Below the pieces are notes generated by a model. That model did no database searches. It saw nothing but the letters and a program-made list of their open reading frames with translations, and had not been told where the DNA came from. DNA of 62,759 nucleotides, counting the filler, from Basidiobolus ranarum (Eukaryota): NCBI GenBank assembly GCA_040143965.1. It is 44 parts of 44 records of this genome, joined end to end, with 100 filler letters (N's around TTAATTAATTAA, not from the genome) between each part and the next. Parts side by side here need not be neighbours in the genome. Positions count along the whole stretch, not along the records: positions 50,040 to 51,364 come from JASJQH010012414.1; 43 more parts are not named here. The stretch is one strand, 5' to 3'. The translations under genes were made by a program, and so were the position numbers. Below are positions 10,616 through 62,759 of the stretch, piece by piece. Every line of letters begins with the position of its first letter. Within the stretch, counting starts at the first letter, position 1.

Positions 10616-11363
10616 TTGCCAGATATTGCATATTCTGTGGGAGTTAAGTGCCAGTATTTTCAAAATTATGAATCTGATCAAATCATAGCAGTTAAGTGAC
10701 TTCTCAGATAGTTGAAACATACTGTGGATCTGTGCTTAAAATACACATATTCTGGATCAAACTTTGATTTGATGGGATATTCAGATGCACATTGAAGAAG
10801 AGATATTGAAGACAGGAGATCTACAACAGGATACTTATTTCTTTGCTGTAAAGGAGCTATTTCTAGGAATTCAAAGAGGCAATCTACCATAGCACTTTCA
10901 ACAACAGAAACAGAGTATATGGCTGCCTGTGAAGCAATAAAAGAAGCAATATGGTTTAGAAAACTCTTAGCAAATTTAGGCTATTCACAAAATTCACCAA
11001 CTACAACATGTCAAGATAATCAAAGTTGTATCAAATTAGCTAAAAATCCCATGTTTTGCAGTAGAAGCAAACATATGGATATTAGACATCACTTCATTAG
11101 AGAGACCATACAGAATAAGTATATTGACTTAACTTATTGTTCTACCAAAGATATGATTGTTGATATATCAACCAGGCCATTGGCTAGACAGAAATTTGAG
11201 AAATTTAGTCCTCTCTTAGGATTAGTTTATATGGCCATTTAGTTGAGGGAGAGTGTTGAAATTAGCATTGCCTAAACACCTATATAGTCATATATAGCTT
11301 AGTACTTAGTTATCTTATATTGAACTAAGATATTATCCTTTATTCTCAATTGGAATATACTTG
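10616..11363 (+). mobile_element. Copia 3' end: RNase H remnant, PPT (11245-11253), LTR family C starting TGTTGAAATTAGC at 11254
   Basis: EYMAACEAIKEAIW, SKHMDIRHHFIRE; purine tract abutting TG. Confidence 0.92.
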
Positions 11364-11463: not shown

Positions 11464-12795
11464 GTATTTTTGCAAAAATTGCTGGATATCAAATAAAGCT
11501 TGCCAAATTTGAGGATCAATATTTTAATTTGTATGAATACCATTAAGATACCATCAAGAAACCACTGTCATACCATCAAAATCCCTGGCACAATGCAAGC
11601 CAATAATATTTTGACGGTTCTCTGATAGTTTTGCTATTTTGGAGGGTGGAACTGATCTGGATCAAATTGATTTTGTTTTTGTTAGGGGCAATATGCTTTA
11701 CCAGCAAACAAACAGGCAAAAAATTGTCAAACATCTGAAATTTTGAATATCACTGATACTTGGCAAATGGCTGACTCTTGTTACCATCCACAATGAGAAT
11801 ATGATATTTTATTATGGCAAAGTTCCATAAAGAATTTAGCCAACATATACTTGACTTGCAGTCAACAAATGTCCTGCCACAAGTAGATGTGTATTGCTTG
11901 AATTGATTACGCCATGGCTAAACAATAATATTATGTATCCCAATCCATCTCACCAAGAAGTCTGTCTGGCAGCATTCCTGGAAATACTCTCAGATAATTG
12001 CATCAACAAATTAGTCCAAATTTTAAAGGTACTTACTCTGTATCCATATATTGAGCTTTGATGCTGTTATTGTGCTCAAATAATGTGAAAAGCTGTGAGC
12101 ACACTGAAAAGAGCCCCTTGTTGGAAAATTAATATACTCTGGAGTTTCCGTAACCCATTGCAATACATCTATCATTGATTTTGTTGAAACATTGTTAATC
12201 AGATTAGCATAAGGTATACTGACAATTTCACATGGAGCATCATTTCACTGCATGTGTGCTCCATTTGGAACTGCCAGAATGTATAGCAAGGGCCTATATT
12301 CCCAAATTATTGAGAAAGATGCAACCAGGAATGTATTGAATACTGGCATAGATTCAGTCTGTCTTTCTTAAACCTGCAACAAAGTCTATCATATCCAATT
12401 ACAAATCTTTGCACAGTTACCCTGACAAAAATAAAATTGATTTGATTGGGATTGGATCCACTGTACAAAAGAGCAAAACCATCAGAGAACCATAACAATT
12501 TTGGTGGCTTGCATTCTGCCAGGAATTTTGATGGTGTGATGGCAGTTCTTGATGGTATTTTTATGGTATTCATGCATGTTACAATATTGATACTCAAATT
12601 TGGCATGTGTTATTCAATATCCAGCAATTTTTGCAAAATATAATTTTCAAATAGCAAATTACTGGGTTTACTGCTGTAGGAATTTGAATTAATATGTATG
12701 CCTTTATTTAGATATTTTAGGCTTTGTATTCCAGCCATAATGAGAATCAAAAAATACAAGAATCTCATTGTGTTTAGTCTCTACATATGCACATA
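11464..12795. mobile_element. Nested CMC/EnSpm fragments: two terminus-A copies plus transposase 3' region
   Basis: ...TTTTTGTTAGGG near 11687, CCCTGACAAAAAT at 12420; decayed GPCYTFWQF.ME on the minus strand. Confidence 0.8.
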
Positions 12796-14327: not shown

Positions 14328-14438
14328 ACACAGCCAGATATTGCATATTCTGTGGGAGTTATGTGCCAATATCTTCAAAATTATGGATCTGATCAAATCA
14401 TAGCAGTTAAGTGGATTTTCAGATATTTGAAAGGTACT
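14328..14438 (+). pseudogene. Copia RT C-terminal fragment abutting the viral D5 gene
   Basis: QPDIAYSVGV...AVKWIFRYLKGT; same family as 10616-10725. Confidence 0.9.
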
Positions 14439-14439
14439 C

Positions 14440-15063
14440 GTATTATTCTTACAGGAACCCAATCCAGAAGAAAAAATAAAAGGAGGTATAGTAAAAGAAT
14501 TAACAGGGAACGATAGAATTTATGTCAGGAATTTGTTTAAGAGTCCTAGATCTATACAAGTTAAGGGTAAAATTGTCCTGGTTTGTAATAATATTTTATC
14601 GATTCCGGATATGGATTCAGCACTAAGGCAAAGAACAATAGTTATCCCATTTATTAGTACATTTGTTCGAGATAAACTTTGTTTACAAGATAATGTATAT
14701 CAAATGAACTCTAATGTTGAAACTATACTTGAAGAAAGTCAAGAAGCTTTTTTATATATACTAACCCAAGAATATGCAACATTTAAACAAAAAGGACTAG
14801 AAATACCTGAATTTATGAACAAAGTAACACAAGAGTATCTAGATGCTTACAATTATCTGTTAACATTCAAGAAAAAATATGTAATATATTCTGAAGGATC
14901 TATATATAATATACATGAGGCATACAAAATGCTTAAGGATTGATTTACAACAAATAATCCCTGTAGAAAGATACCAACTATGGAAGAATTTTCCAAGGTT
15001 CTCAATACAAATTCTAATGGACAATTAGTTGAATGCAGAGTAACATACCAGTTTGGAGGATAA
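14440..15063 (+). pseudogene. D5-like SF3 primase-helicase C-terminal half (NCLDV-like), one internal TGA at 14941
   Basis: Walker B LFLQEP, KELTGNDRIYVRNLF (B'), KIVLVCN (motif C), ALRQRTIVIPF (Arg-finger region); frame reads on through the TGA to TAA at 15061-15063. Confidence 0.88.
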
Positions 15064-15066
15064 TTT

Positions 15067-15354
15067 TTAAAAATTATATGTTTTTTTACATGATATACAA
15101 TAACACATCCATGTTGATCCCTTGTTGGCTGATCAAAGTTGAAATTCTCTAATTATAATAGTTGTTTTATCACAATATTTGCATGGTGTATTACTTTTTA
15201 TTTTATTTACATCTTTATCATCTGCGTATCTACCAAAAATGCTATTTATCATTGAATCGAGATTAAATTGGTCCCCAATCAATAGCTTGTCTAGTATTTG
15301 TACATTTCTATTGGAAATTATTTTTTTTAGGTAGGCTAACATATATTCATCCAT
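15067..15354 (-). pseudogene. Short TFIIS-like zinc-ribbon transcription elongation factor (about 95 aa, virus-like)
   Basis: Read through the TGA at 15133: PCKYC...REFQL*SANKGSTWMCYCISCKK, matching CxxC...QxRSADE(G/P)xT...CxxC. Confidence 0.85.
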
Positions 15355-15542
15355 GAATTGGAAAGATGATTAGCAAGAATTTTACAATGATAATTCTGAT
15401 CTAATAAAGACAGACTCAAAATTCTTTCCTTATCTGATGATATTTTTGTCCCTAGTCCATCAAAAGTGTTTAAAATATTTTGAATGGTATCTTTAACAGA
15501 AATCCAAGTAGTTGATGTTGGTCAATCTCCATATTCATCTAG
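15353..15542 (+). pseudogene. Uracil-DNA glycosylase N-terminal part, cut by a copia LTR
   Basis: Manual translation MNWKDD*QEFY.../...FVPSPSKVFKIF*MVSLTEIQVVDVGQSPYSS resembles family-1 UDG VF..F....VKVVIxGQDPY. Confidence 0.75.
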
Positions 15543-15658
15543 TGTCAAAATTAGCATTGCCTAAACACCTATATAGTCATATATAGCTTAGTACTTAGTT
15601 ATCTTATAATTCACTAAGATATTATCAATTATTCTGAATTGGAATTTACTTAGAATAT
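15543..15658 (+). mobile_element. Copia LTR family C inserted into the UDG gene
   Basis: TGTCAAAATTAGCATTGCCTAAACACC matches the LTR starts at 11254 and 47454. Confidence 0.92.
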
Positions 15659-18620: not shown

Positions 18621-19502
18621 ACTCTGGAGTCTCCTTAACACATCACATTACATCCATCACTGATTTTGCTGATGCATTGTTAATCAGATTAGCATACAGT
18701 AATACTGACAATTTCACACTAGCCATCATTTCACCACAGGTGCTCTCCATTGGGAACTCCCAGAATGTATAGGAAGGGCCTATGATCTCTAAGCATTATC
18801 AAAGATGCAGCAGGGAATGTATTGAATACCAGCATGGATTCAGTCTATCTTCTTTAAACCTGTAATAAATTTCTCATATCCAATTACAAAATCTTTGCAT
18901 AGTTGCTGTGCCTGCCTGAGATCTGCCAATCTGAGTTGATGATGCAAGAATATATTAACAATATCCACAAACAACTCCCACTGTTGCCAATACTTATTAG
19001 CTGAAATCTTTTCAAGATTCCAGTTGAATATATACAAATCAAAAACTTCTAGTCTTTGTATTTGAATAAGTGCCTAGATGAGGGGATATTGATGGGAGTC
19101 CTGGTAAAATATGATGATATCTTGATGTTTTCAAGTATTTTCCCAATGTATTTAAACTGTGATCCTTTCTCAAATGGCTCATTCATATTGTACTTTCCAC
19201 TATATTGCTGAGTAAGTAGGATTGGAATGTTGTTGTAAAGTAAGTGCATAGTGCCTAATGAGAAGCTCTGGCTCCAGCTGATCCTCTTTAGCAATATATT
19301 CTCAGACTGACCATTTGGTGAATTGATGTCAGTGAGCATGTTAAAATTGGACTGGGCTCTTGTTTGTAAAATTATGGAGTTTGTGTTGTAGTTGGATAGT
19401 AGTAATGCATATAAATAATAGATTCAACTCCATTAGTTTGACAAAATCAACAGCAAGATAGAGCATTGTGGCTGGAGAAACCTCCAAGTTTAATGATGGC
19501 AG
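18621..19502 (-). pseudogene. CMC/EnSpm (Tnp2/Transposase_21-like) transposase fragment, interrupted by LTR B
   Basis: LGTMHLLYNN, WEFPME; homologous to 61437-62759. Confidence 0.85.
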
Positions 19503-19892
19503 TGTTGAAGTTTATTGTCTTTATCAATTTTGTTATCTCTATCTTTTTACAACTAACTATTTCATATATCACATATAAGTTAGTTAACATTAATTAGTCA
19601 AATATAACTTAGCTAAAAATTGGAACATATATTATATATATATGTGAATAATGTGCACATTAGTAATTCCATATTGGAAATTTCAAACCCATCCAAATTG
19701 CCCCAAAGATAGCTCATTTTACTCCCACAGATGTTCTGAACATAACCCCAGTGTTAATTTTCTGTATTTCCATCAAAATGTATAAATGCTATATTTCTGG
19801 ACAATAAATAATTATCTCACAAAGCTATTCACAACTCCACTTTTCTAAAGTTACTCCAAACAGCCAATATTTTCCCAATAGGTTATGAGCCC
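19503..19892 (+). mobile_element. Complete LTR family B (19503-19880) plus PBS GGTTATGAGCCC
   Basis: TGTTGAAGTTT...CCCAATA; the same LTR follows the PPT at 26891. Confidence 0.88.
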
Positions 19893-20050
19893 CATATTCT
19901 AACCTTTACAGCATAACAGAAACCACTACTACCACTTTTATTAACTCAAGNNNNNNNNNNNNNNNNNNNNNNNNNNNNNNNNNNNNNNNNNNNNTTAATT
20001 AATTAANNNNNNNNNNNNNNNNNNNNNNNNNNNNNNNNNNNNNNNNNNNN

Positions 20051-20612: not shown

Positions 20613-20824
20613 GAGAAGGATATTGTAGAAAAAAGAACACCTCCCACGTAAGGGTGGTATTTTAGGTATAGCCCATCAATATCATCAGCTGATTCTGAGA
20701 CAGTGTCACAGATGAGTCATCAGGGGATTTACAAGATATTTCCGGTAATGGATGGCAATTTTGGTTTATTATAAGCTGTTTCTAAGCAATTTCATTACAC
20801 CAAGTTTACCATCTGAAAATTTCA

Positions 20825-25770: not shown

Positions 25771-27099
25771 TTTGCTCCTGTAGCAAAGTTTAATTTCATC
25801 AGAACCATACTAGCAGTAGCAGCAAAACACAGCTTTAAAATCCATCAAATGGATGTTAAAGCTGCTTTTTTGAATGGGGACTTGGAAGAGGATGTATTCA
25901 TGGATCAAATAGATGGTTTTGTGGATCCTGAGCACCCTGACAATGTGTGTAAGCTACAAAAAGCACTTTATGGATGAACTTAAATATTTCTTGGGCCTGC
26001 AGATCCATACAGATATATAGAGCAAATCTATTACTCTGAATCAACCTAAATTCATCTCAGACATTCTCAGACATTACAGGATGGAGAATTATAAGCCAGT
26101 ACCAACCCTTGTGGATCCAAGTGTGAAACTAGTCCAAAAATCCCATCAAAAATGATGAAAATTGGCCAAACATGGCTTAAAATATGTCATTGGAAAGCTT
26201 GGAGTTCCCTCATTAATCTATGGCAGGTAGTTTGAGCTATGCTATGACTGGAACCTGCCAGATATCTCTTTAGCAGTGAGAGTAATTAGGCAACATGTGC
26301 TAAACCCAGGATCTGAGCATTATGCAGTAGTTAAGTGGATTTTCAGATATTTGAAGGGAAAAATTGATCTGGGATTAAGATACACACAATCTTGTGAGAA
26401 TAAGGATCTAATTGGATTCAGTGATGCAGATTGGGGATGTAATATTGAGGACAGAAGATCTATTACTGGATATACCTTTCTCTCTAGTGAAGCAGTCATA
26501 TCTTGGAATAGCAAGAAACAACCCACCATAGCACTTTCAACAACTGAAGCATGGTACATGGCTGCATCACATACAACAAAGGAGGCTATGTGGTTAAGGA
26601 AACTGCTCAAAGACTTGGGCATTTTCAAAGTTTACCCACCATAATTTTCAAGGATAATCAAAGTGGTATTTCTTTAGCTAAAAATCTCAAATTTCATGCC
26701 AGAAGTAAGCACATTGACATTCAACATCACTCTGTCAGGGAAGCTATTGAGAATAAGCTCATCCAACTAGAGTACTGTCCAGCTGAGGACATGATTGCTG
26801 ACATCATTACTAAACCATTACCCAAGCCAAATTTGAAGAAATAAGATTTAAGTTAGGATTAAGATGTATGAATATTTAGTTGAGTGGGAGTGTTGAAGTT
26901 TATTGTCTTTAACAGTTGTTATCTCTATCTTTATATACCTAACTATTTCATACATCACATATAAGTTAGTTAACATTACTTAGTCAAATAGCGCTTAATT
27001 GCAAATCAGAAGATATATCATATATATATATGAATAATGTCAGAGTTAGCAATTCCATATGGGAAGTTTCAAACTTGTCCAAATTGCCCCCAAGATAGC
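25771..27099 (+). mobile_element. Copia RT-RNase H remnant, PPT and 3' LTR B (from 26891)
   Basis: FSDADWG, SKHIDIQHH, ADIITKPLPK; GAGTGGGAG-TGTTG junction. Confidence 0.94.
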
Positions 27100-37198: not shown

Positions 37199-38139
37199 AG
37201 CTACCCATTAGGCAGTAAGCACTTACTATTCAACAACATTCCAATACTACTACTCAGCTATATAGTGGAAATTTCAATATGAATGAGCCATTTGAGATAG
37301 GAACAAAGTTTGAATCAGTTGGGAAAATGCTTGATTACATCAAGATACCATCATATTTCCGAGGACTCCCATCAGTATCCACTCATCTAGGCTTTTGCTC
37401 AAGTGCAATGACTGGAAGTATTGGATTTGTATATATTCAAGTGAAATTTTGGAAAGATTTCTGCCTGATAAATATTGGCAACATTGGGAGTTGTTAGTTG
37501 ATGTTGTTAAGACATTCTTATGGCATCAACTTATATTGGCAGATCTCAGGCGGATACAGCAACTGTGCAAAGATTCTGTAATTGGACATGTAAGACTTTC
37601 TTACAGGTTTAATATGCCTAAATGATGCTCCATGTGAAATTGTCAATATTGCTGTATGCTAAGAGCTGGTGCTATTCAAAATTTCAGATGTTTAGCACTT
37701 TTTCCACAATTAGTTTGCTGGTAAAGTGTATTGATGGTGTAGAGTTATGTCTGGTCAGTCAAGTATGTGCATATGTAGAGACTAAATCCAACAAGAATTT
37801 GGTATTTTTTTATTCTCATTATCACTTGAATACAAAGCCTAAAATATCCAAATAAGGGCATGCAAATTAATTCAAATTCCTACAGCATTAAACCTAGTTA
37901 TTTGCTATTTGAAAATTAGATTTTTGAAAAATTGTCAGAAATTAAATAAAGCATCCCAAGTTTGAGGATCAATATTTTAACATGTTTGAATACCCTCAAA
38001 ACACCATCAAGAAACCACCATCACACCATTAGAATCCCAGGCAGATTGCAAGCCACTGGTAATGTCACAGCTCTCTGATGGTATTGCAATCCAGAAGGGC
38101 AGATTCAATCTGGATCAAATCAATTTTATTTTTGTTAGT
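37199..38139 (+). mobile_element. CMC transposase 3' part running into terminus A
   Basis: HLLFNNI...DWKYWICIYS...YWQHWELLVD; ends ATTTTTGTTAGTG. Confidence 0.82.
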
Positions 38140-39920: not shown

Positions 39921-41484
39921 ATTGTTTTAAGTTATAGAGTGTTTTCTGGAGTTNNNNNNNNNNNNNNNNNNNNNNNNNNNNNNNNNNNNNNNNNNNNTTA
40001 ATTAATTAANNNNNNNNNNNNNNNNNNNNNNNNNNNNNNNNNNNNNNNNNNNNATACAAAGATATTTAGTCAGTATATGTGACTAATTGATTGAAAAGGT
40101 ACATGTAAGCACAATTACTAATATAAGTCATTGACTAGGGAAAGTGTAAGAAGCCAAGGGAAGCACCAATGCTTGAGGAACACAGATCTGACTAACAACC
40201 ACAGTGTAGGGGCTGGAGGACACCATCTTGCATAGCACATTGAACTAATACACATACAAGAACAATTTTACCTTACTATTGATAGTTCATGGAGCATATT
40301 AGGTAAATAATTTTGGAACAATAGAGAGTAAATAAAGCTATAGAAAAGAATATTGTGAGAAAAGTCAATAAAAATAACAGTTCAGCATGGTTCCAAGCTT
40401 GGGCAAGTGTTACTCGATTCAAGTGGGGTGCTTTGATAAAGTGAGAAGAAAATGGGTTTCGTTGTACAGAAAAATCGTTGTGGTACGTAACGAACATTAA
40501 CACGAGACAACAGCGAGTATACAAATCACTCCTTGATTGATCTTATTGTTAGTGTATCATGGTTGGATTCAGAATATAGGCTTTTCTCCATTCATCGAAT
40601 ACAAGGGTGCTTAGGCTAGGTAGCACCGTAAATCATAGCTTGAGAGAGCTTTCAAGAATAAAGACATGGTTTATTACACAATTGCCTTCTACACGTCAAT
40701 GCAAGGTTTGGATTGAAATTAATTTAGATTTAATGGAGCGCTTTTTGATGGACGAATAATTCACACTGAATTCATGAGCCAGAAGAAATACAACAGACAC
40801 CTTGTACATGTTCTCCAAGATGAAGCGTACTGGGTTCATGTGTTCTTCTTCAACATTTGTAGTGGTGGGTACCTTCATGATGTCAAATATTCATGTGGAG
40901 TGTTTGATGCTGACTACAATCGTGCTTTTAAATCATGAATCAAGTGATAATTGATGTTGTATTACCCATGGTTGTACCTGCAATTGTACGCTTATGGTTT
41001 ATTGTCATCAGCTTCGTTCACACCAATTCTGATCCAAGCAATCCGAAGCAATCTCATATTCTTTGATTTTCAGGAGAAATGGGACAGGCCTGGCCGGGTC
41101 TGGGATGAGATGAGATTAAACTCGGCCGCGTGCTTGGTGGTATAGGACAAGCAGCTTATGTTAGTTAAGTTAGTACAAATGACCATCTCTGGTAAAGCTC
41201 CTCTAGCTCACAAAGAAACTGAGGCTTTTAGAGATAATTTCACAACTAAAGATGTCATACATTTAGGCATCTCTTTAAATTTCTTTTCGATTGACAGAAT
41301 AGACCCGTTAAATACACGAAAATCCATAGCACCAGGGCATATGTTACATAAATAGGGTCAAGGTCAGCTGAGAGATGGAGNNNNNNNNNNNNNNNNNNNN
41401 NNNNNNNNNNNNNNNNNNNNNNNNTTAATTAATTAANNNNNNNNNNNNNNNNNNNNNNNNNNNNNNNNNNNNNNNNNNNNAACA

Positions 41485-42395
41485 GGTTATGAGCCCCAAG
41501 CTTGCACTCTCTGTAATGTCTACTTCTCAAATTTATGGAACTTTTCCCTCTTCTGAAAAATTGGATGGAACCAATTATCAAGTTTGGAAAACTAAAATGA
41601 AAATGCTGCTGCAAGAAAAAGAACTTTGGGACACTGTTGTAGGAGAAGAAAACAATGCAAAACTATCTGAAATCAAAGTTTTACTCCAGGTTAAAGAAGA
41701 ACAAAGTGCCTTTAACACAATTTGTCTTAATGTTAAAGACAAATTGCCAATTCAATGTTCAAGAGCTAAAACTGCCACAAAGGTATGGAAATCCTTCAAA
41801 GACACCTACAAAACAAGTTCTGCTGCCTACAAGATGTTTCTAACAAGACAATTCTTCAACTTAAAGAAGAAGCCAGGAGATGACATTAAATCACTAATTA
41901 ATAGAGTCACTATTTTAGTGGATGAAATGGAGTGCATCGGAGTATCTACTACTGATCAAGATATCATAGTTACAGTCCTGAATAGCCTGCCACACAAGCT
42001 TCAGAGCCTAGTAATGGCTCTAGAATTAAGAACTGAAAATTTGATCTTAAATTATGTATTTGGCAGACTTCTGGATGAAGATTTACACAAATCAGGATCC
42101 AACCACAAGAATGAAGAAAATGGTATAATAGGCTATGGGAAACCTTCCTACAAAGATCTAAAGCACTTTAAGAAGAAAATTAACGCATTCTGTGATTACT
42201 GTAAAAGAACTGGCCATTTAAGCAAAGATTGCTTTAAAGAATTGCAAAAGAAGAAAAACACACTGAATCTGGAAATGTGGTTGCAACAGAAGATCACTTG
42301 TTCATATCAGCTCTATCAATGACTACCAACAAGGATTCTCAGATGTGTTATATTAATTCTGGAGCTTCCCAAAATTTCATAAATGAAAAACATTG
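41485..42395 (+). mobile_element. Copia PBS plus gag (UBN2-like, CCHC knuckle) and decayed protease start
   Basis: AACA-GGTTATGAGCCC; CDYCKRTGHLSKDC; YINSGAS. Confidence 0.93.
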
Positions 42396-43295
42396 TGTCA
42401 TTATTCTGATCTTGGCATACCAATCCACTACAAATAGAACTACTCTATTATTAGATTTTGACATCATATCTGCTGTGCCATCCCTTCTTGGCAATCTGGT
42501 GTCAGTTCATCCAGATTACCTTGTATGGAAATGATGTTCTTTGGAACATTCCATGAAATCAAACCAATCAAGTCATCCCACACATAGTGTATTTCCACCA
42601 AGACCTTCCATGGAAGGTCACCTGATCAACCTTACATCATCCCTCTTTGTATTGGTCCTTGTAGTCCCCAACACCCCAACTCTTGAACTTGCCATGGTAT
42701 ATTCCCTATTCAGTATATTATGTTTCACCTTGCAATATCTATATAAGCCCCATGTATTCCTTGATCAGACCTCAGTCTGATCAATGCCAGTTATCAATAA
42801 AGATTCTNNNNNNNNNNNNNNNNNNNNNNNNNNNNNNNNNNNNNNNNNNNNTTAATTAATTAANNNNNNNNNNNNNNNNNNNNNNNNNNNNNNNNNNNNN
42901 NNNNNNNTAGAAGGTTAATAAAGGTTGGAGGCTAGTTGATCCATCTCAATATATCCATCACCAATTTTGCAGATACACTTTTAATCAGATTAGCATACAG
43001 TACTACTGACAATTTCATATGAAGCATTGTTTCAACAGGTGCACTCCATTGGGAACTCCCAGAATGTATAGCAAGGGCCTATAAACTCAAAGCATAGTGG
43101 AAGATGCAGTGGGGAAAGTATTGAATACTGGCATATATTCAATCTATTTTCTTTAAACCTGTAATAAAGTTTTTCATGTCTAATTACAAAATCTTTGCAC
43201 AGTTGCTGTATCTGCCTGAAATCTGCAAAAGTGAGTGTATTTGATAAGAATACATTTGCAATATCCACAAACTGCTCCCAGTGTTGCCAATACTT

Positions 43296-48955: not shown

Positions 48956-50190
48956 GGGTTAGGTTTGGGAGCCTGTTCAAAATGGCTTCATGAATTAGAG
49001 AAACTGATGATTTTCACCAATTGATTTATTGAGCTGAAAGTTGCCATTTATAGTTTTATCAAGAGGTAACTAAAGTAATGTGCAAAATTTGTTTAGGAAG
49101 GTCTGAGACCTTCCAAGCTGGTAAACATATTCTACTTAAATTCTGATTGCAAATAACTAGTAATATCTTGGTGAAGTACATGATGTCTAAATACTAAGCT
49201 ATATATGTCTATATTGGTGTTTAGGCAATGCTAATTTCAATAATGTTTAGCTCATATTGCTAAACTCAATCTAATAGAATTATACCTAGATACAGGAGTA
49301 AAAATTTCTGTATCATCTATTTCTGGTTTTTGGGAATAACCTTAGGCTACCAGTCTAGCCTTGTACCTTTCTATATGGCCATCAAATTTGTATTTAACTT
49401 CACACATGCATTGGCAGCCAATTGATTTTGTATTATCTGGCAATGGCAAGTTATCTAAAGTACAAGCTTGATAATTAATCAAAGCCTAGAACTTGTCAGC
49501 AATTGCAAATCTTCAGATTTCTTTGTGATGCCCATTCAGGCCCTCTTTTACATTCTAGGGTTCATGTATTTGATCTGTGCAGGCATAGGCCCTGTCTTGG
49601 GAGTTATTAATTAGTAAGCTAGGCTGTTTCTGATCCAATTTGATCTCCCCTTTTAGGATAGAGATTGTACAGCTTCTGACATTGTGTTGGACACTACAGT
49701 AGGCTAAGTTCTGGTTGAAGAGTCCACAGGAATGCTACTTTCTTCATTGTTTTAGCTTGAAGCAAGTTGAATGATTGAGTGAGACAAAATTAATTTTTTT
49801 CCTATGCTGGGATCATTTTTACCCTAATAGAAATTTGAGGATTGTTATTGTAAGAAAACTGTCACAATTTTAATCCATTTGGGTTCAACCAATTACTTAC
49901 CGTCATAAAATCATCATGTTATATTTGATTTTAATCAATNNNNNNNNNNNNNNNNNNNNNNNNNNNNNNNNNNNNNNNNNNNNTTAATTAATTAANNNNN
50001 NNNNNNNNNNNNNNNNNNNNNNNNNNNNNNNNNNNNNNNACATAATTCACATATATATATAATATATGTTCCGATTTTCAGCTAAGTGATATTTGACTAA
50101 ATAATGTTGACTAACTAATATGTGATATATGAAATAGTTAGGTGTATAAAAGTAGGGATAACATATATGATAAAGACAATAAACTTCAAC

Positions 50191-50653
50191 AGCCATTACC
50201 CCCATTAGTGTAAATGCTAGCTCTCCAACTTTATCAAGAGGTATAGAAAATTCATCAATAGAAAAAATTTTGTTGTATATACAAAAATTTTCAGAAGATT
50301 CTGACAAAAGAAACCAAAAAACTTTAGAGGTTCTCAATCAGACCCTACTTGAACTCTTGAATTCTATATCTAATCAAGACAAATTGTTCACCAAGTCTAT
50401 TGATGAAATGGTTTCTGTGATGAAAGACGCCAACATTTCTGAACGTACCAAGAACCAATTGACAGAACAAATTATCAAACTTCTAGATGAAAAAATTTAC
50501 AAAAAAGGCTTAGTATTAATAATAACTCCAAAAGGAGGTAAAATGCAACCAGTAGATAATTTAGATGATTTAGAACAGTATACTAAAGATAAAAATGTGT
50601 ACGTTACTGGCAGTATTTCAGATATAACTAAGGGACTTTTCCTAGTTGACTGA
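50191..50653 (+). CDS. Orphan intronless AT-rich ORF (putatively viral), 5'-truncated by reversed LTR B (50040-50190)
   Basis: Frame open from the LTR junction (AITPISVNAS...LLYIQKF...GLFLVD*); convergent with UDG, 10 nt between the stops. Confidence 0.6.
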
Positions 50654-50663
50654 TTTTTAAAAA

Positions 50664-51140
50664 TTATTTATGCCAAGATATAGGAAGTTTGTTTATTTTA
50701 GTTAGCATCTGGTTGATTTTAACAAATATATTACTATGAGAGAATGTTTTGTTTAAAAATCTAGATACAAGATGATGAACATTTATTATATGAGTAACCG
50801 GCAATATATCTGCTAATGCCCAACTATCTCTTCCCATTAAACTGTATACAACATTAGGTTGATTACATTCTATATATTTAATTACATTTCTAGTAAACAT
50901 TTCCCAAAAAATTTTATGATTGTTAGAAAACTTGCAGTTAGATATTCCATGAGTCCATGATACATTTATCAAAAAAACTCCTTGTCTCATCCAACTATAA
51001 AAAGTGTCATATGGATTAGGAGGAGGTAAATCAAACTTGTATGCAATTTTGTCAACAATCACTTGAGCAGTTTTAGGAATAGATTGACATTTGTGTGATG
51101 GCATTATCAGAATTCCACTAGCAAAAAAATTATTTGTAAA
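50664..51140 (-). CDS. Uracil-DNA glycosylase central and C-terminal part (virus-like), 5'-fused to copia gag
   Basis: FASGI, SWMRQGVFLINVSWT, HKIFWEMFTRNVIKYI, VVYSLMG, HHLVSR, FSHSNIFVKINQML match family-1 UDG motifs. Confidence 0.85.
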   Translation of the reverse strand, partial: FTNNFFASGILIMPSHKCQSIPKTAQVIVDKIAYKFDLPPPNPYDTFYSWMRQGVFLINVSWTHGISNCKFSNNHKIFWEMFTRNVIKYIECNQPNVVYSLMGRDSWALADILPVTHIINVHHLVSRFLNKTFSHSNIFVKINQMLTKINKLPISWHK

Positions 51141-51364
51141 ACTTGTGTGGCAGGCTATTCAGGACTGTAACTATGATATCTTATTCAGTGGTAGGTTCTC
51201 CAATGCATTCCATTTCATCCACTAAAATAATGACTCTATTAATTAGTGATTTGATGTCTTCTCCTGGCTTCATCTTTAAGTTAAAGAATTGTCTTCTTAG
51301 AAACATCTTGTTGGCAGCAGAACTTGTTTGGTAGGTGTCTTACAAGGCTTTCCATACCTTCTTG
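51141..51364 (-). pseudogene. Copia gag fragment
   Basis: Homologous to about 41780-41999. Confidence 0.88.
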
Positions 51365-52311: not shown

Positions 52312-52724
52312 TTAAATAAAAACACCCAATGGTACAAAGGACTCCTTGGAAAATGCGGTAGCACTCAAATTTTCATTTTGTAAAAATTTGGATGGGAAAG
52401 CAACCAAATGGCCCCGAACTTTGCTAAGAATTTCTTTGATTTCCTCATTTGATTTGGTCTTTAGAGCACTATGACCGGTCATCACTAAGTTGGAGTTGGG
52501 TACGAATCCAGTGTACTCCGTCCAATTAGTTACTGTGTCATCCGGCACACACCGGAATACAACTCTATAGATCTCAGTGTTTGTAGTAGCAGTTTTACTC
52601 CATACATCGTTGAAAAATCTGTCTGATAGTGGATCCATAACTGGGTTTTCTTGAGGTTGTGGAGGTTGTGCAGGTTGTTGGGTTTCATTGCCGCCACGAT
52701 GGAAGTGTCGATGGATTCGATCAC
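52312..52724 (-). CDS. Last exon of phospholipase D1 (Spo14-like)
   Basis: DPLSDRFF..VW...A..NTEIYR.VFRCVPDD, VRGHLV.FP..FL. Confidence 0.9.
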
Positions 52725-53019
52725 CTATTGCGTGGGCACTAAATAAATTATGTGAACTATCGCTACCTTGATAATTATACTGGTTATCANNNNNNNNNNN
52801 NNNNNNNNNNNNNNNNNNNNNNNNNNNNNNNNNTTAATTAATTAANNNNNNNNNNNNNNNNNNNNNNNNNNNNNNNNNNNNNNNNNNNNGAAAGTTACTC
52901 CATCTCCATTTGTAGTAGAGGGCCAGAGACATATACAAGACATTGCCAATTTACCCAAGCTAAGAGTGTAGTAATACTATATATATACCCTGACTATTTT
53001 TTACCGATTTTTCGATATG

Positions 53020-53461
53020 TGGACCTCCTGGTGGAATAGTCACTTGGTCCTAAGCTCATGGTGGCTAATCTTCCTACCATTCCTAAGATGGATATTGAGT
53101 AAAGTGATGGTTACAAGTTACTTGAGAAGAGAGACCAATCAATACAGTAGGGGCTACTAATGACGGCGGTCATTCTGATCCAAAGCCCACTTCTACATCG
53201 ATGCCTTATTCAACAACTACCGCAAAACCAACTTCAATAACCACTGACAAACCCCCTTCAACAACTGCTACTTTAACTAAACCAACTGTTACCAATCCAG
53301 GTACTGGTGCCTGTGCAGGCATTACAAATTGGGAAGCTAACAAGGCATATAATGGTTCTCAAACGGATGCTTTTGATGGACATCTCTGGCAAGCCAAGTG
53401 GTGGACACCAAATGAATCTCCTAGTAAACAAGGAGTATGGACAGATTTGAGATCTTGTTAG
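53020..53461 (+). pseudogene. Chitin-active protein 3' part: disrupted upstream domain (possibly AA11 LPMO-like), P/T linker, CBM5/12 chitin-binding module
   Basis: WEANKAYNG...FDGHLWQAKWWT...PS..GVW; upstream GPKLMVANLP with frameshift and stops. Confidence 0.7.
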
Positions 53462-61436: not shown

Positions 61437-62759
61437 AAAATCTTTGCACAGTCACTGTATCTGCCTGAAATCTGCCAATGTGAGTTAATGCCATAAGAAT
61501 ATATTAACAAACAACTCCCAATTTTGTCAATACTTATCAGGTAGAAATCTTTTCAAAATTCCACTTGAATATATACAAATCCAATACTTCCAATCTTTGT
61601 GTTTGAATAAACACCTAGATGAGTGAATATTGATGGGAGTCCTGGTAAATGTGATGGTATCTTGACGTTTTCAAGCATTTTCCCAATTGATCCAAACTTA
61701 GATCCTATCCCAAATGGCCCATTCATATTGAATTTTCCACTATATAGCTGAGTAAGTAGTATTAGAATGTTGTTGAATAGTAAGTGCATAGTGCCTAATG
61801 GGAAGCTCTGGCTCCAGCTGATCCCCTCTAGCAATGTATTCTTAGGCTTACAACTAATACCAAGTTTGATGTTAGACTGACTATTTGGTGAATTGATATC
61901 AGTGATCTTGTTGAAATCTGACCAGGCTCTTGATGGTAAAATCATGAAGTTCAGTGTTGTATTTGGATCGCAGTAGTGCATATGCCAGTTAGAGTAAACT
62001 CCATTGATTTTACAAAATCTACAGCAAGATAGTGCATTGTGCCTGCAAAAACCTCCAACTTTACTGATGGCAGGAATGTCACCAATACATACAATGATAT
62101 TAGCTTTAATAAATTATTCACCCAACTGAACCCCATTAGATAAGCATTGAAATTCCGCAATCAAAGGCTCCAAGAAGCTATCTATAAGCACTGGTGATTT
62201 AGGTCCAGATTTGATGGATTGTATCAAAATATTATGGCTCTGATACCATTCAGAAGGAGGAAGATTTAAGTGGATAAAAATTATTGGCCAGCAAGCCTTT
62301 CCACAGAGTATATTTGTTTAGTGAGAAACCATCCAGAGCAAATGCAAATGCTTGATCATATGTGTTCTCAAAGAAATCTTGACTTTTTGGATTCTGGTAG
62401 TGATATCCATCAAGTATATTGGTAAAACCAGCAGCTTTACGGTAAGTACCTAGGTATTGGATCAATGATATATATTTGGGTGATTTCATCAAAACTTTAA
62501 GATGGGGAATCTATGGTATGTAAGCCAAATATGAACAACATTTACTTGTTCAGTGATTGCCAATTGTGTGCAAACAGTACATGACTTCAGGTTTTTAAGA
62601 TCACCAGTGAAAGCCAAACAACCCTTTGGACATGAAGGCAGTTTAATTACTGAAGGATTATAAGACATACAATTGACAAGTGTTTTCCACTTGTACCAGG
62701 TCTGTGGCAAGCAACAGTTGCCAATCAACTGCGGTAAAAGTGTAAGAAAACCAATAAAC
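61437..62759 (-). pseudogene. CMC/EnSpm Tnp2-like transposase fragment
   Basis: SCPKGCLAF, ALDGFSL, GDIPAISKVGGF, LGTMHLLFNN. Confidence 0.9.

Follow-up and report, generated by a model that had tools for sequence, protein, structure and literature searches.

The genome of Basidiobolus ranarum (assembly GCA_040143965.1) contains, between two pieces of copia retrotransposon, a 947-nt island that carries the 3′ part of a uracil-DNA glycosylase (UDG) gene and the tail of an orphan open reading frame (ORF), which raises the question of where this DNA came from and whether its UDG fragment (the C-part) belongs with a second UDG fragment (the N-part) on another contig of the same assembly. The window, by which we mean the whole stretch of 62,759 nt analysed here, consists of 44 contigs of 1323–1334 nt each, sorted by length and joined by spacers of the form N44-TTAATTAATTAA-N44; position within the window therefore says nothing about linkage, a point already made in the original prediction. 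We consider it likely that the island (50192–51138) is a dead remnant of giant-virus-like (Nucleocytoviricota-type) DNA that was dismantled by copia elements, and sequence comparison makes it fairly probable that both UDG pieces descend from one interrupted gene, whether at the same locus or in duplicates of it.

Contig 50040–51364, on which the island lies, reads in order the end of a long terminal repeat (LTR), the orphan ORF tail on the plus strand, a spacer, the UDG C-part on the minus strand and the interior of a copia gag gene. The partner contig, with the N-part, is 14328–15658. The features of the two contigs, with the evidence for each, are as follows:

50040–50191 (minus strand): terminal 152 nt of copia LTR B, delimited by copies that align as far as 50191
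50192–50653 (plus strand): orphan ORF, C-terminal 153 codons and a TGA stop, recognised by its open length and the LTR border
50654–50663 (no strand): T5A5 palindromic spacer of 10 nt between the convergent stop codons
50664–51137 (minus strand): UDG C-part, codons 68–227 of the relative P0001, 157 open codons and a TAA stop, by homology to P0001
51139–51364 (minus strand): Ty1/copia gag interior, hidden Markov model (HMM) positions 72–121 and beyond, interrupted by a stop codon and reading in the direction of the UDG
14328–14438 (plus strand): copia pol interior, abutting the D5 fragment, by identity to 10618–10723
14437–14991 (plus strand): C-terminal fragment of a D5-type primase-helicase, by tblastn against the D5 of locus L083
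15088–15369 (minus strand): TFIIS zinc-ribbon pseudogene, head-to-head with the UDG start, by tblastn with the TFIIS of loci L081 and L082
15353–15542 (plus strand): UDG N-part pseudogene, codons 1–64, by its match to P0001
15543–15658 (plus strand): 5′ start of copia LTR A (TGTCAAAATT...), with the junction inside UDG codon 64

The two glycosylase fragments

The island holds ORFs of 157 and 153 codons. Shuffling it 2000 times gave a longest ORF of 62 codons at the median and never more than 153, with 150 reached once (1/2000); two ORFs of such length in DNA of 29.5% GC are beyond chance. The GC contents of the two islands, 28.5% and 29.5%, compare with a contig median of 36%.

The C-part occupies a stop-to-stop ORF at 50664–51158 (minus strand), whose first six codons (IACHTS) are gag DNA out of frame. 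A phmmer search of the PDB at E ≤ 10 returned 58 distinct matches, 57 of them named uracil-DNA glycosylase, the best being 4skn_E (1.9e-7), aligned to residues 110–221 of the 223-residue chain. The Pfam UDG family (PF03167) gave no match at E ≤ 1 for the 164-aa fragment alone; P0001, an intact protein of 227 aa from one 5.4 kb (5407-nt) public-assembly contig, scores 25.0 bits against a cut-off of 24.3, and the UDGs of the metagenomic loci L001, L002, L081 and L083, discussed below, score 32.6–38.1 bits. P0001 is the sole close relative of the C-part among 5.8 billion clustered proteins, with 66% identity over 160 residues, and the UDG homology of the C-part begins at its T68 (TNNFF...), which places the start at codon 67/68.

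The N-part matches P0001 residues 1–63, with 18 of 34 residues identical over positions 1–34 and 34 of 50 (68%) over positions 19–68. It bears three lesions, namely a TAG at W7, the loss of 1 nt in an A-run and a TGA at R44, and it ends with GQSPYSS and the AG of codon 64, immediately after which LTR A starts (TGTC...). The original prediction had placed the beginning of the C-part almost exactly where the fragment at 15353–15542 stops, and the alignment to P0001 agrees: one part ends at codon 64, the other starts at codon 67/68, and between them lies, instead of an incompatible overlap or indeed any overlap, a gap of 7–10 nt. The divergence from P0001 is equal for both parts (68% identity for the N-part, 66% for the C-part), and the window holds one N-part and one C-part and none further. 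Because the parts are complementary, lack only 7–10 nt and are equally diverged, descent from one interrupted gene appears likely. The window copy itself cannot function: the gene is split over two contigs, its front half carries 2 stops and 1 frameshift, 7–10 nt are lost and the neighbouring genes are truncated.

The in-frame stops of the N-part island (15133–15135, 15371–15373 and 15481–15483) are all TAG or TGA where relatives have Trp or Arg. Such stops could have arisen by C:G to T:A transitions, whether from deamination or from decay resembling repeat-induced point mutation.

An AlphaFold2 model of P0001 from a 25-row alignment (predicted local distance difference test score, pLDDT, 94; predicted template-modelling score 0.91), which depicts the relative and not the broken window gene, adopts the UNG alpha/beta fold. 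Foldseek gave template-modelling (TM) scores of 0.67–0.84 among the matches listed, including the human, E. coli, mimivirus and Kaposi’s sarcoma-associated herpesvirus UNGs. The uracil-pocket Asn is kept in the window copy (FLINVS, the LLLN motif), and the corresponding N125 is invariant in the 25-row alignment. The window loop HHLVSR keeps the catalytic His and has Arg at the position of the intercalating residue; the top PDB match of the C-part, 4skn, is a human chain with Arg at that same position (hpsprs). The catalytic Asp is absent, for the window N-part and P0001 both read GQSPY where the aligned loop of E. coli UNG reads GQDPY.

Relatives and their gene neighbourhoods

With P0001 as the query, HMMER run exhaustively gave 4784 proteins at E ≤ 1e-3 but only 3 at E ≤ 1e-30, and the best match other than P0001 itself is 43% identical. 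The best 150 metagenomic cluster representatives score 70–127 bits, compared with 64 for E. coli UNG, 58.6 for mimivirus UNG and 48–51 for human UNG. Among these 150, the column of the catalytic Asp holds 120 Asp, 17 Ser, 7 Glu, 5 Asn and 1 Tyr; the Ser forms gather near the top of the score ranking and cluster with an HPVxR loop, and from its residues the Ser-type clade looks like a whole group of probably inactive or altered glycosylases. Ser also occurs in 3 of 80 loci from IMG/VR, a biased count that is unusable as a frequency, the search pattern having contained GQSP. Among the papers listed by a full-text literature search for the Ser-type variant (GQSPY), none was on UDG by title. The loop that reads HPSPLS in cellular UNG reads HP[VA][AS]R in the group of the window UDG, whose last 68 residues have only 8 PDB matches (best 7.8e-4), all of them chains reading ...GYHPAARDRQF..., which we take to be poxvirus D4/E4, the search result giving no organism.

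A FastTree analysis of 231 rows was poorly resolved (88 of 216 inner branches open). Its clade of 44 rows was carried over whole into a 74-row IQ-TREE phylogeny, together with the 10 metagenome loci and with 20 canonical rows, taken as the first ten loci and the first ten representatives that have both GQDPY and HPSP; the other 157 of the 231 rows stayed outside. In this tree the window sequence pairs with P0001 (SH-like approximate likelihood-ratio test, SH-aLRT, 99) and then with P0002 and P0004 (85), within a 41-row HP[VA]xR clade (80) and beside a 21-row clade (96) that contains all 10 loci of known context in the 41-row clade; the canonical HPSP[LFY] rows fall across a root split (81) from the HP[VA]xR clade.

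The loci came from a scan of IMG/VR, which found 237 relatives of which the best 80 were kept, and from JGI metagenomes (10 loci), for a total of 90. P0001 alone as a query found zero relatives in IMG/VR, and the search patterns were built from alignments smaller than the 25-row one, which was too divergent. The 10 fetched loci in the 21-row clade are L001, L002 and L081–L088. L001 and L002 encode Rpb1, Rpb5, DUF5757 and an SNF2-type helicase, and L081–L088 encode PolB, Rpb1, Rpb2, D5_N/DUF5906, the ribonucleotide reductase small subunit and DUF5757; no capsid gene was seen in the fetched stretches of these ten. All clade members with known context thus lie on giant-virus-like contigs with hallmark genes.

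The gene order around the UDG of these loci recurs in the window. A TFIIS gene (a zinc ribbon of 98–125 aa) lies directly upstream of the UDG on the opposite strand in 10/10 clade loci and in 0/80 others, with a gap of 0–50 nt or a slight overlap, and D5 lies further upstream on the TFIIS strand in 7 of the 90 loci (L081–L087). On the N-part contig, a TFIIS-like pseudogene (15369–15088, minus strand) faces the UDG start at 15353 in the same head-to-head pair; it has a TGA inside its QL(R)SA motif, and tblastn with the TFIIS of L081 and L082 gives E values of 6e-4 to 7e-4. The D5 fragment beside it is 40–41% identical to the D5 of L083 over 189 residues (tblastn, E 7e-40) and 32–36% identical to that of five more loci, with a Pfam match to DUF5906 of only 0.0077. 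Apart from a weak match at 20622–20765 (E 0.001), the ORFs of the loci match the window in the two islands only. The gene 3′ of the UDG varies among the viral relatives, being an unidentified protein of 175–283 aa, a DUF5757 protein, a HET protein or a 2OG-Fe oxygenase.

These comparisons bear on the possibility that the fragment is a diverged cellular UNG paralogue of the host, disrupted by transposons, as its family-1 UDG fold and motifs might suggest. We regard this as extremely improbable: the metagenomic relatives score 70–127 bits where human and E. coli UNG score 48–64, the UDG belongs to an HPVxR/GQSPY clade with a context of the nucleocytoplasmic large DNA virus type, TFIIS and D5 are its neighbours, and the DNA has no introns, intergenic spacers of 0–10 nt and a GC content under the contig median. 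The original prediction had named a grouping of the C-part with fungal UNG1 as a refuting outcome, and no grouping with cellular UNG1 was found by scores or tree; what excludes fungal UNG1 in particular is the gap in scores together with the loop motifs and the neighbouring genes, the trees being without named eukaryotic UNGs. Judged by its residues and relatives, then, the window UDG is not a cellular UNG.

Many HET (heterokaryon incompatibility) genes occur on the metagenomic giant-virus-like contigs, interspersed with D5, TFIIS, UDG, Rpb2 and DUF5757, in the following stretches:

L081: 3989–8496, 11769–15524 and 17032–20614
L082: 2–1783
L086: 14430–19942
L087: 1328–2833 and 10677–11771

HET domains are typical of fungi, so these viral contigs may have a fungal host or may lie in a fungal genome; among the papers listed by a literature search for HET together with giant viruses, none dealt with such a combination. 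Two further metagenome loci matched by the UDG pattern, L089 and L090, are of another kind: they have 27–29% GC and most of their listed ORFs of at least 90 aa on the UDG strand, without a TFIIS or D5 match, and their UDGs group with the canonical sequences in the 74-row tree.

Copia borders and the break in the gene

Of the two borders of each island, one falls exactly on an LTR terminus (15543 and 50191) and the other lies in the interior of a copia element (pol at 14438 and gag at 51139); every one of these junctions is contained in a single contig. At the left border of the C-part island, four window copies of LTR B align up to ...AAACTTCAACA (...TTCAACA) at 50191 and then diverge; read leftward, this is the true 5′ end of LTR B (TGTTGAAG...), the orientation of which is set by contig 25771–27099, where copia pol is followed by LTR B from 26891. 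At the right border, gag homology runs to 51139, with 91.4% identity over 222 nt to 41780–42001 (contig 41481–42807), and the piece at 51181–51339 matches Retrotran_gag_2 (1.6e-10), in agreement with the earlier claim that the UDG fragment is fused to copia gag. The other gag copy continues ...PHKLQSLVMALE; the window copy switches to UDG after ...LNSLPHK, with at most 2–5 ambiguous bases common to both sources. On the partner contig, LTR A (about 352 bp) starts exactly at 15543, directly behind GQSPYSS as had been predicted, and its orientation is fixed by the polypurine tract AGGGAGAG that precedes it in true 3′-LTR copies. The pol piece at 14328–14438 is 90.6% identical to 10618–10723, itself 528 nt upstream of an LTR A in its own contig. 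Both islands share the order of sense copia interior, viral DNA and sense LTR start, with pol/D5 mirroring gag/UDG.

Might these junctions be unreal, with chimeric contigs of copia and viral DNA produced in assembly at gag/UDG and pol/D5? The contigs of 1.3 kb, the repeat-rich assembly and the odd copia-interior junction in both islands invite that reading, which we nevertheless judge improbable: with at most 2–5 ambiguous bases at the junction there is little to make a k-mer graph misjoin likely, the LTR junctions lie exactly on LTR termini as in real integrations, and the breakpoints of the two contigs match, which is unexpected for random chimeras. More improbable still is that the viral pieces are passengers inside chimeric copia derivatives and were spread by retrotransposition. 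Such passengers would account for the same order and sense in both contigs, and in contig 18621–19950 a repeated internal sequence that is not copia also precedes LTR B; against them stand the lack, on the N-part contig, of a polypurine tract in front of LTR A and the occurrence of each chimeric junction only once in the window, and the shared order and sense would arise by chance in about 1 of 4 cases (an estimate).

The repeat just mentioned (18621–19502) is without a Pfam match and ends exactly at an LTR B start (19503), in the place that copia pol would normally take, and may thus represent the inner part of a non-autonomous LTR element. Its copies lie at:

61437–62073
37199–37612
42926–43295
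12136–12418

Under the reading that we favour, a viral remnant dismantled by copia, a giant-virus-like element would have entered the genome of an AT-rich, retrotransposon-rich eukaryote. The piece now on contig 50040–51364 holds the 3′ 70% of a viral family-1 UDG and, tail to tail with it across a 10-nt spacer, the 3′ end of what would be a lineage-specific viral gene; close packing of this sort is typical of such viruses. Later, a copia element with LTR B would have integrated into the second gene, removing its N-terminus, and another copia event would have broken the UDG at codons 64–67, in the same sense as the gene and with its LTR A next to the N-part; the order UDG-N, LTR A 5′ start, gag, UDG-C agrees with the orientations seen. 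On the C side, in the simplest single history, the element would end inside gag (at about residue 135) with 7–10 nt of target lost, either through a truncated complementary DNA (cDNA) of which one end was joined by integrase and the other by end-joining, that is an aberrant or 3′-truncated insertion, or through a normal insertion and a later deletion whose end chanced to fall a little beyond the element. Either route may have been taken, and the truncated-cDNA route would need fewer coincidences. The 5′ piece of the UDG would survive on 14328–15658 beside TFIIS, head-to-head, and the D5 fragment.

Several observations weigh against this history. Simple insertion would not produce the copia-interior junctions that form two of the four island borders; no window contig joins the gag family to LTR A or LTR B; and the junctions are known from one short-contig assembly. 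The window D5 points towards TFIIS and the UDG, whereas it points away in 7/7 loci (L081–L087), which implies an inversion or a different arrangement in the window lineage. The window UDG neighbours the 21-row clade with viral context and is not nested in it, deep supports being 80–91, and context is unseen for the closest relatives P0001, P0002 and P0004. The orphan ORF is without a viral relative, and the gene 3′ of the UDG differs among the loci. Finally, the lesions are unevenly spread, with 3 in the 63 codons of the N-part and 0 in the 157 of the C-part (P=0.023 under one rate), a contrast that is weaker over the whole islands (about 0.04–0.08 by hand arithmetic).

The lesion asymmetry leaves room for sister copies, that is for UDG parts that come from different copies of the viral element, produced by multiple integrations or later duplications, and that were broken independently and were never adjacent in the genome. 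Their differing flanks (an LTR A start and a gag interior) would suit such an origin, and the D5 orientation unlike that of relatives shows that rearrangement happened. We think it unlikely all the same: two independent breaks 7–10 nt apart in a 684-nt gene would be a coincidence of about 2–3% (an estimate), the two parts share the same low GC as well as the same distance from P0001, and each is single in the window. The proposal that one viral locus was split by copia stands in part, in that the complementary fragments and the conserved TFIIS-UDG-D5 module speak for a single locus and the D5 orientation and the two copia-interior borders speak against it; as an account of the break, “split by copia insertions” was too simple, since each island has one true LTR end and a gag or pol interior on its other side.

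The orphan reading frame, possible function and other features

The orphan ORF (50192–50653, plus strand) starts exactly at the LTR B border, has 153 codons and no early ATG, and encodes a lysine- and glutamate-rich sequence. As predicted, it is cut by LTR B, whose copies end at 50191, and is convergent with the UDG; the suggestion that it might be the rest of the split UDG fails, for the searches showed no resemblance to UDG or to any other sequence. Pfam gave sub-threshold noise only, a word-indexed protein search at E ≤ 0.01 found nothing among 55 near-length and 1013 longer candidates, ESM Atlas had no usable match and phmmer against the PDB none below E 0.27. In IMG/VR, 16 stretches matched the pattern and yielded zero relatives; tblastn against the 90 fetched loci found none at E ≤ 0.1, and comparison by BLASTP with the genes that follow the UDG in L001, L002 and L083 never did better than an E of 0.87. 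A resemblance to L083:5347–5871 in a MAFFT alignment was dropped when BLASTP gave it no backing. A structure prediction, which had been proposed as a check, was made from the single sequence with AlphaFold2; the poor model is mostly helical and, at a pLDDT of 46.7, unusable. By its open length, the orphan ORF is a real coding remnant and not part of the UDG, and because the downstream gene differs among the viral relatives, a lineage-specific gene is what would be expected at its position. The T5A5 spacer between the two ORFs (ATTTTTAAAAAT with flanking bases, 50654–50663) is a perfect palindrome that could be a hairpin-type terminator or the product of chance in AT-rich DNA.

The vaccinia genes D4R and D5R are adjacent, and the relatives of the window UDG similarly have their UDG linked to a D5 primase-helicase gene. 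Like poxvirus D4/E4, the window UDG is of family 1 and has a C-terminal HP..R loop, with Arg where cellular UNG has the intercalating Leu; unlike them, it has Ser in place of the catalytic Asp that poxvirus D4 keeps, and the similarity is weak, P0001 matching with 22–28 bits and over residues 137–225 only. With human UNG, E. coli Ung and herpesviral UNG it shares the fold, the GQxPY loop, the uracil-pocket Asn and the catalytic His, and differs from the cellular and herpesviral enzymes in the Ser of GQSPY, in HH(P/L)V(A/S)R for HPSPLS and in its viral gene context; Foldseek puts the identity of the P0001 model to canonical UNGs at 20–27%. Mimivirus UNG (5x55, 6lyd) is likewise a giant-virus family-1 UDG and among the best matches (58.6 bits, TM 0.81–0.83), with other loop motifs; it scores no closer to P0001 than E. 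coli UNG does (64 bits), and the TFIIS/D5 synteny is unseen in the other 80 fetched loci. Vaccinia D4 acts as a glycosylase and as a processivity subunit, forming the polymerase processivity factor with A20 (PMC10253040).

By analogy with D4, the Ser-type UDG would probably serve in a living virus mainly as a DNA-binding subunit of the replisome and less as a repair enzyme; Ser in place of Asp, an Arg loop resembling that of D4 and the constant linkage to D5 favour work in the replisome over uracil repair. More tentatively, the island could be what is left of a giant-virus-like lineage not yet described, for which the many HET-domain genes of the metagenomic relatives hint at a possible tie to fungi. 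In such a lineage a UDG without the catalytic Asp, with an Arg loop and set in a TFIIS-UDG-D5 module, would be a non-enzymatic replisome or processivity subunit outside the poxviruses, and the break in the gene may be a one-ended, 3′-truncated copia integration; we put this forward as a possibility, and one that we would not yet favour. If a Ser-type UDG is indeed a replication accessory and not a repair enzyme, the use of UDG for processivity known from poxviruses would have a greater age and a wider range than has been supposed.

That eukaryotes, fungi among them, carry endogenous giant-virus DNA is well established, and an Asfarviridae-like region and scattered polB copies are described for Rhizophagus irregularis (PMC10640383). 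As in those insertions, the window holds viral replication and transcription genes in host DNA, differing in composition and partly decayed; unlike them, it has islands of about 1 kb cut by retrotransposons on both sides, where that study describes low transposable-element content and no D5 (PMC10640383). The words “uracil” and “glycosylase” are absent from its main text, unlike the UDG-bearing island described here (PMC10640383). The locus itself is thus ordinary, a new, small and decayed example of short, dead, endogenised giant-virus DNA in a transposon-rich genome, and a base-resolved one of LTR elements dismantling viral insertions. What appears worth following is the Ser-type UDG clade with its D4-like loop, its head-to-head TFIIS (10/10 loci) and its usually nearby D5, as well as the giant-virus-like contigs of that clade that carry HET-domain genes.

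Elsewhere in the window, two of the few non-transposon ORFs are probably host genes: one at 53126–53458 (plus strand) encodes a chitin-binding-type module (CBM_5_12, 3.4e-6), and one of 158 aa at 52315–52788 (minus strand) is without a Pfam match.

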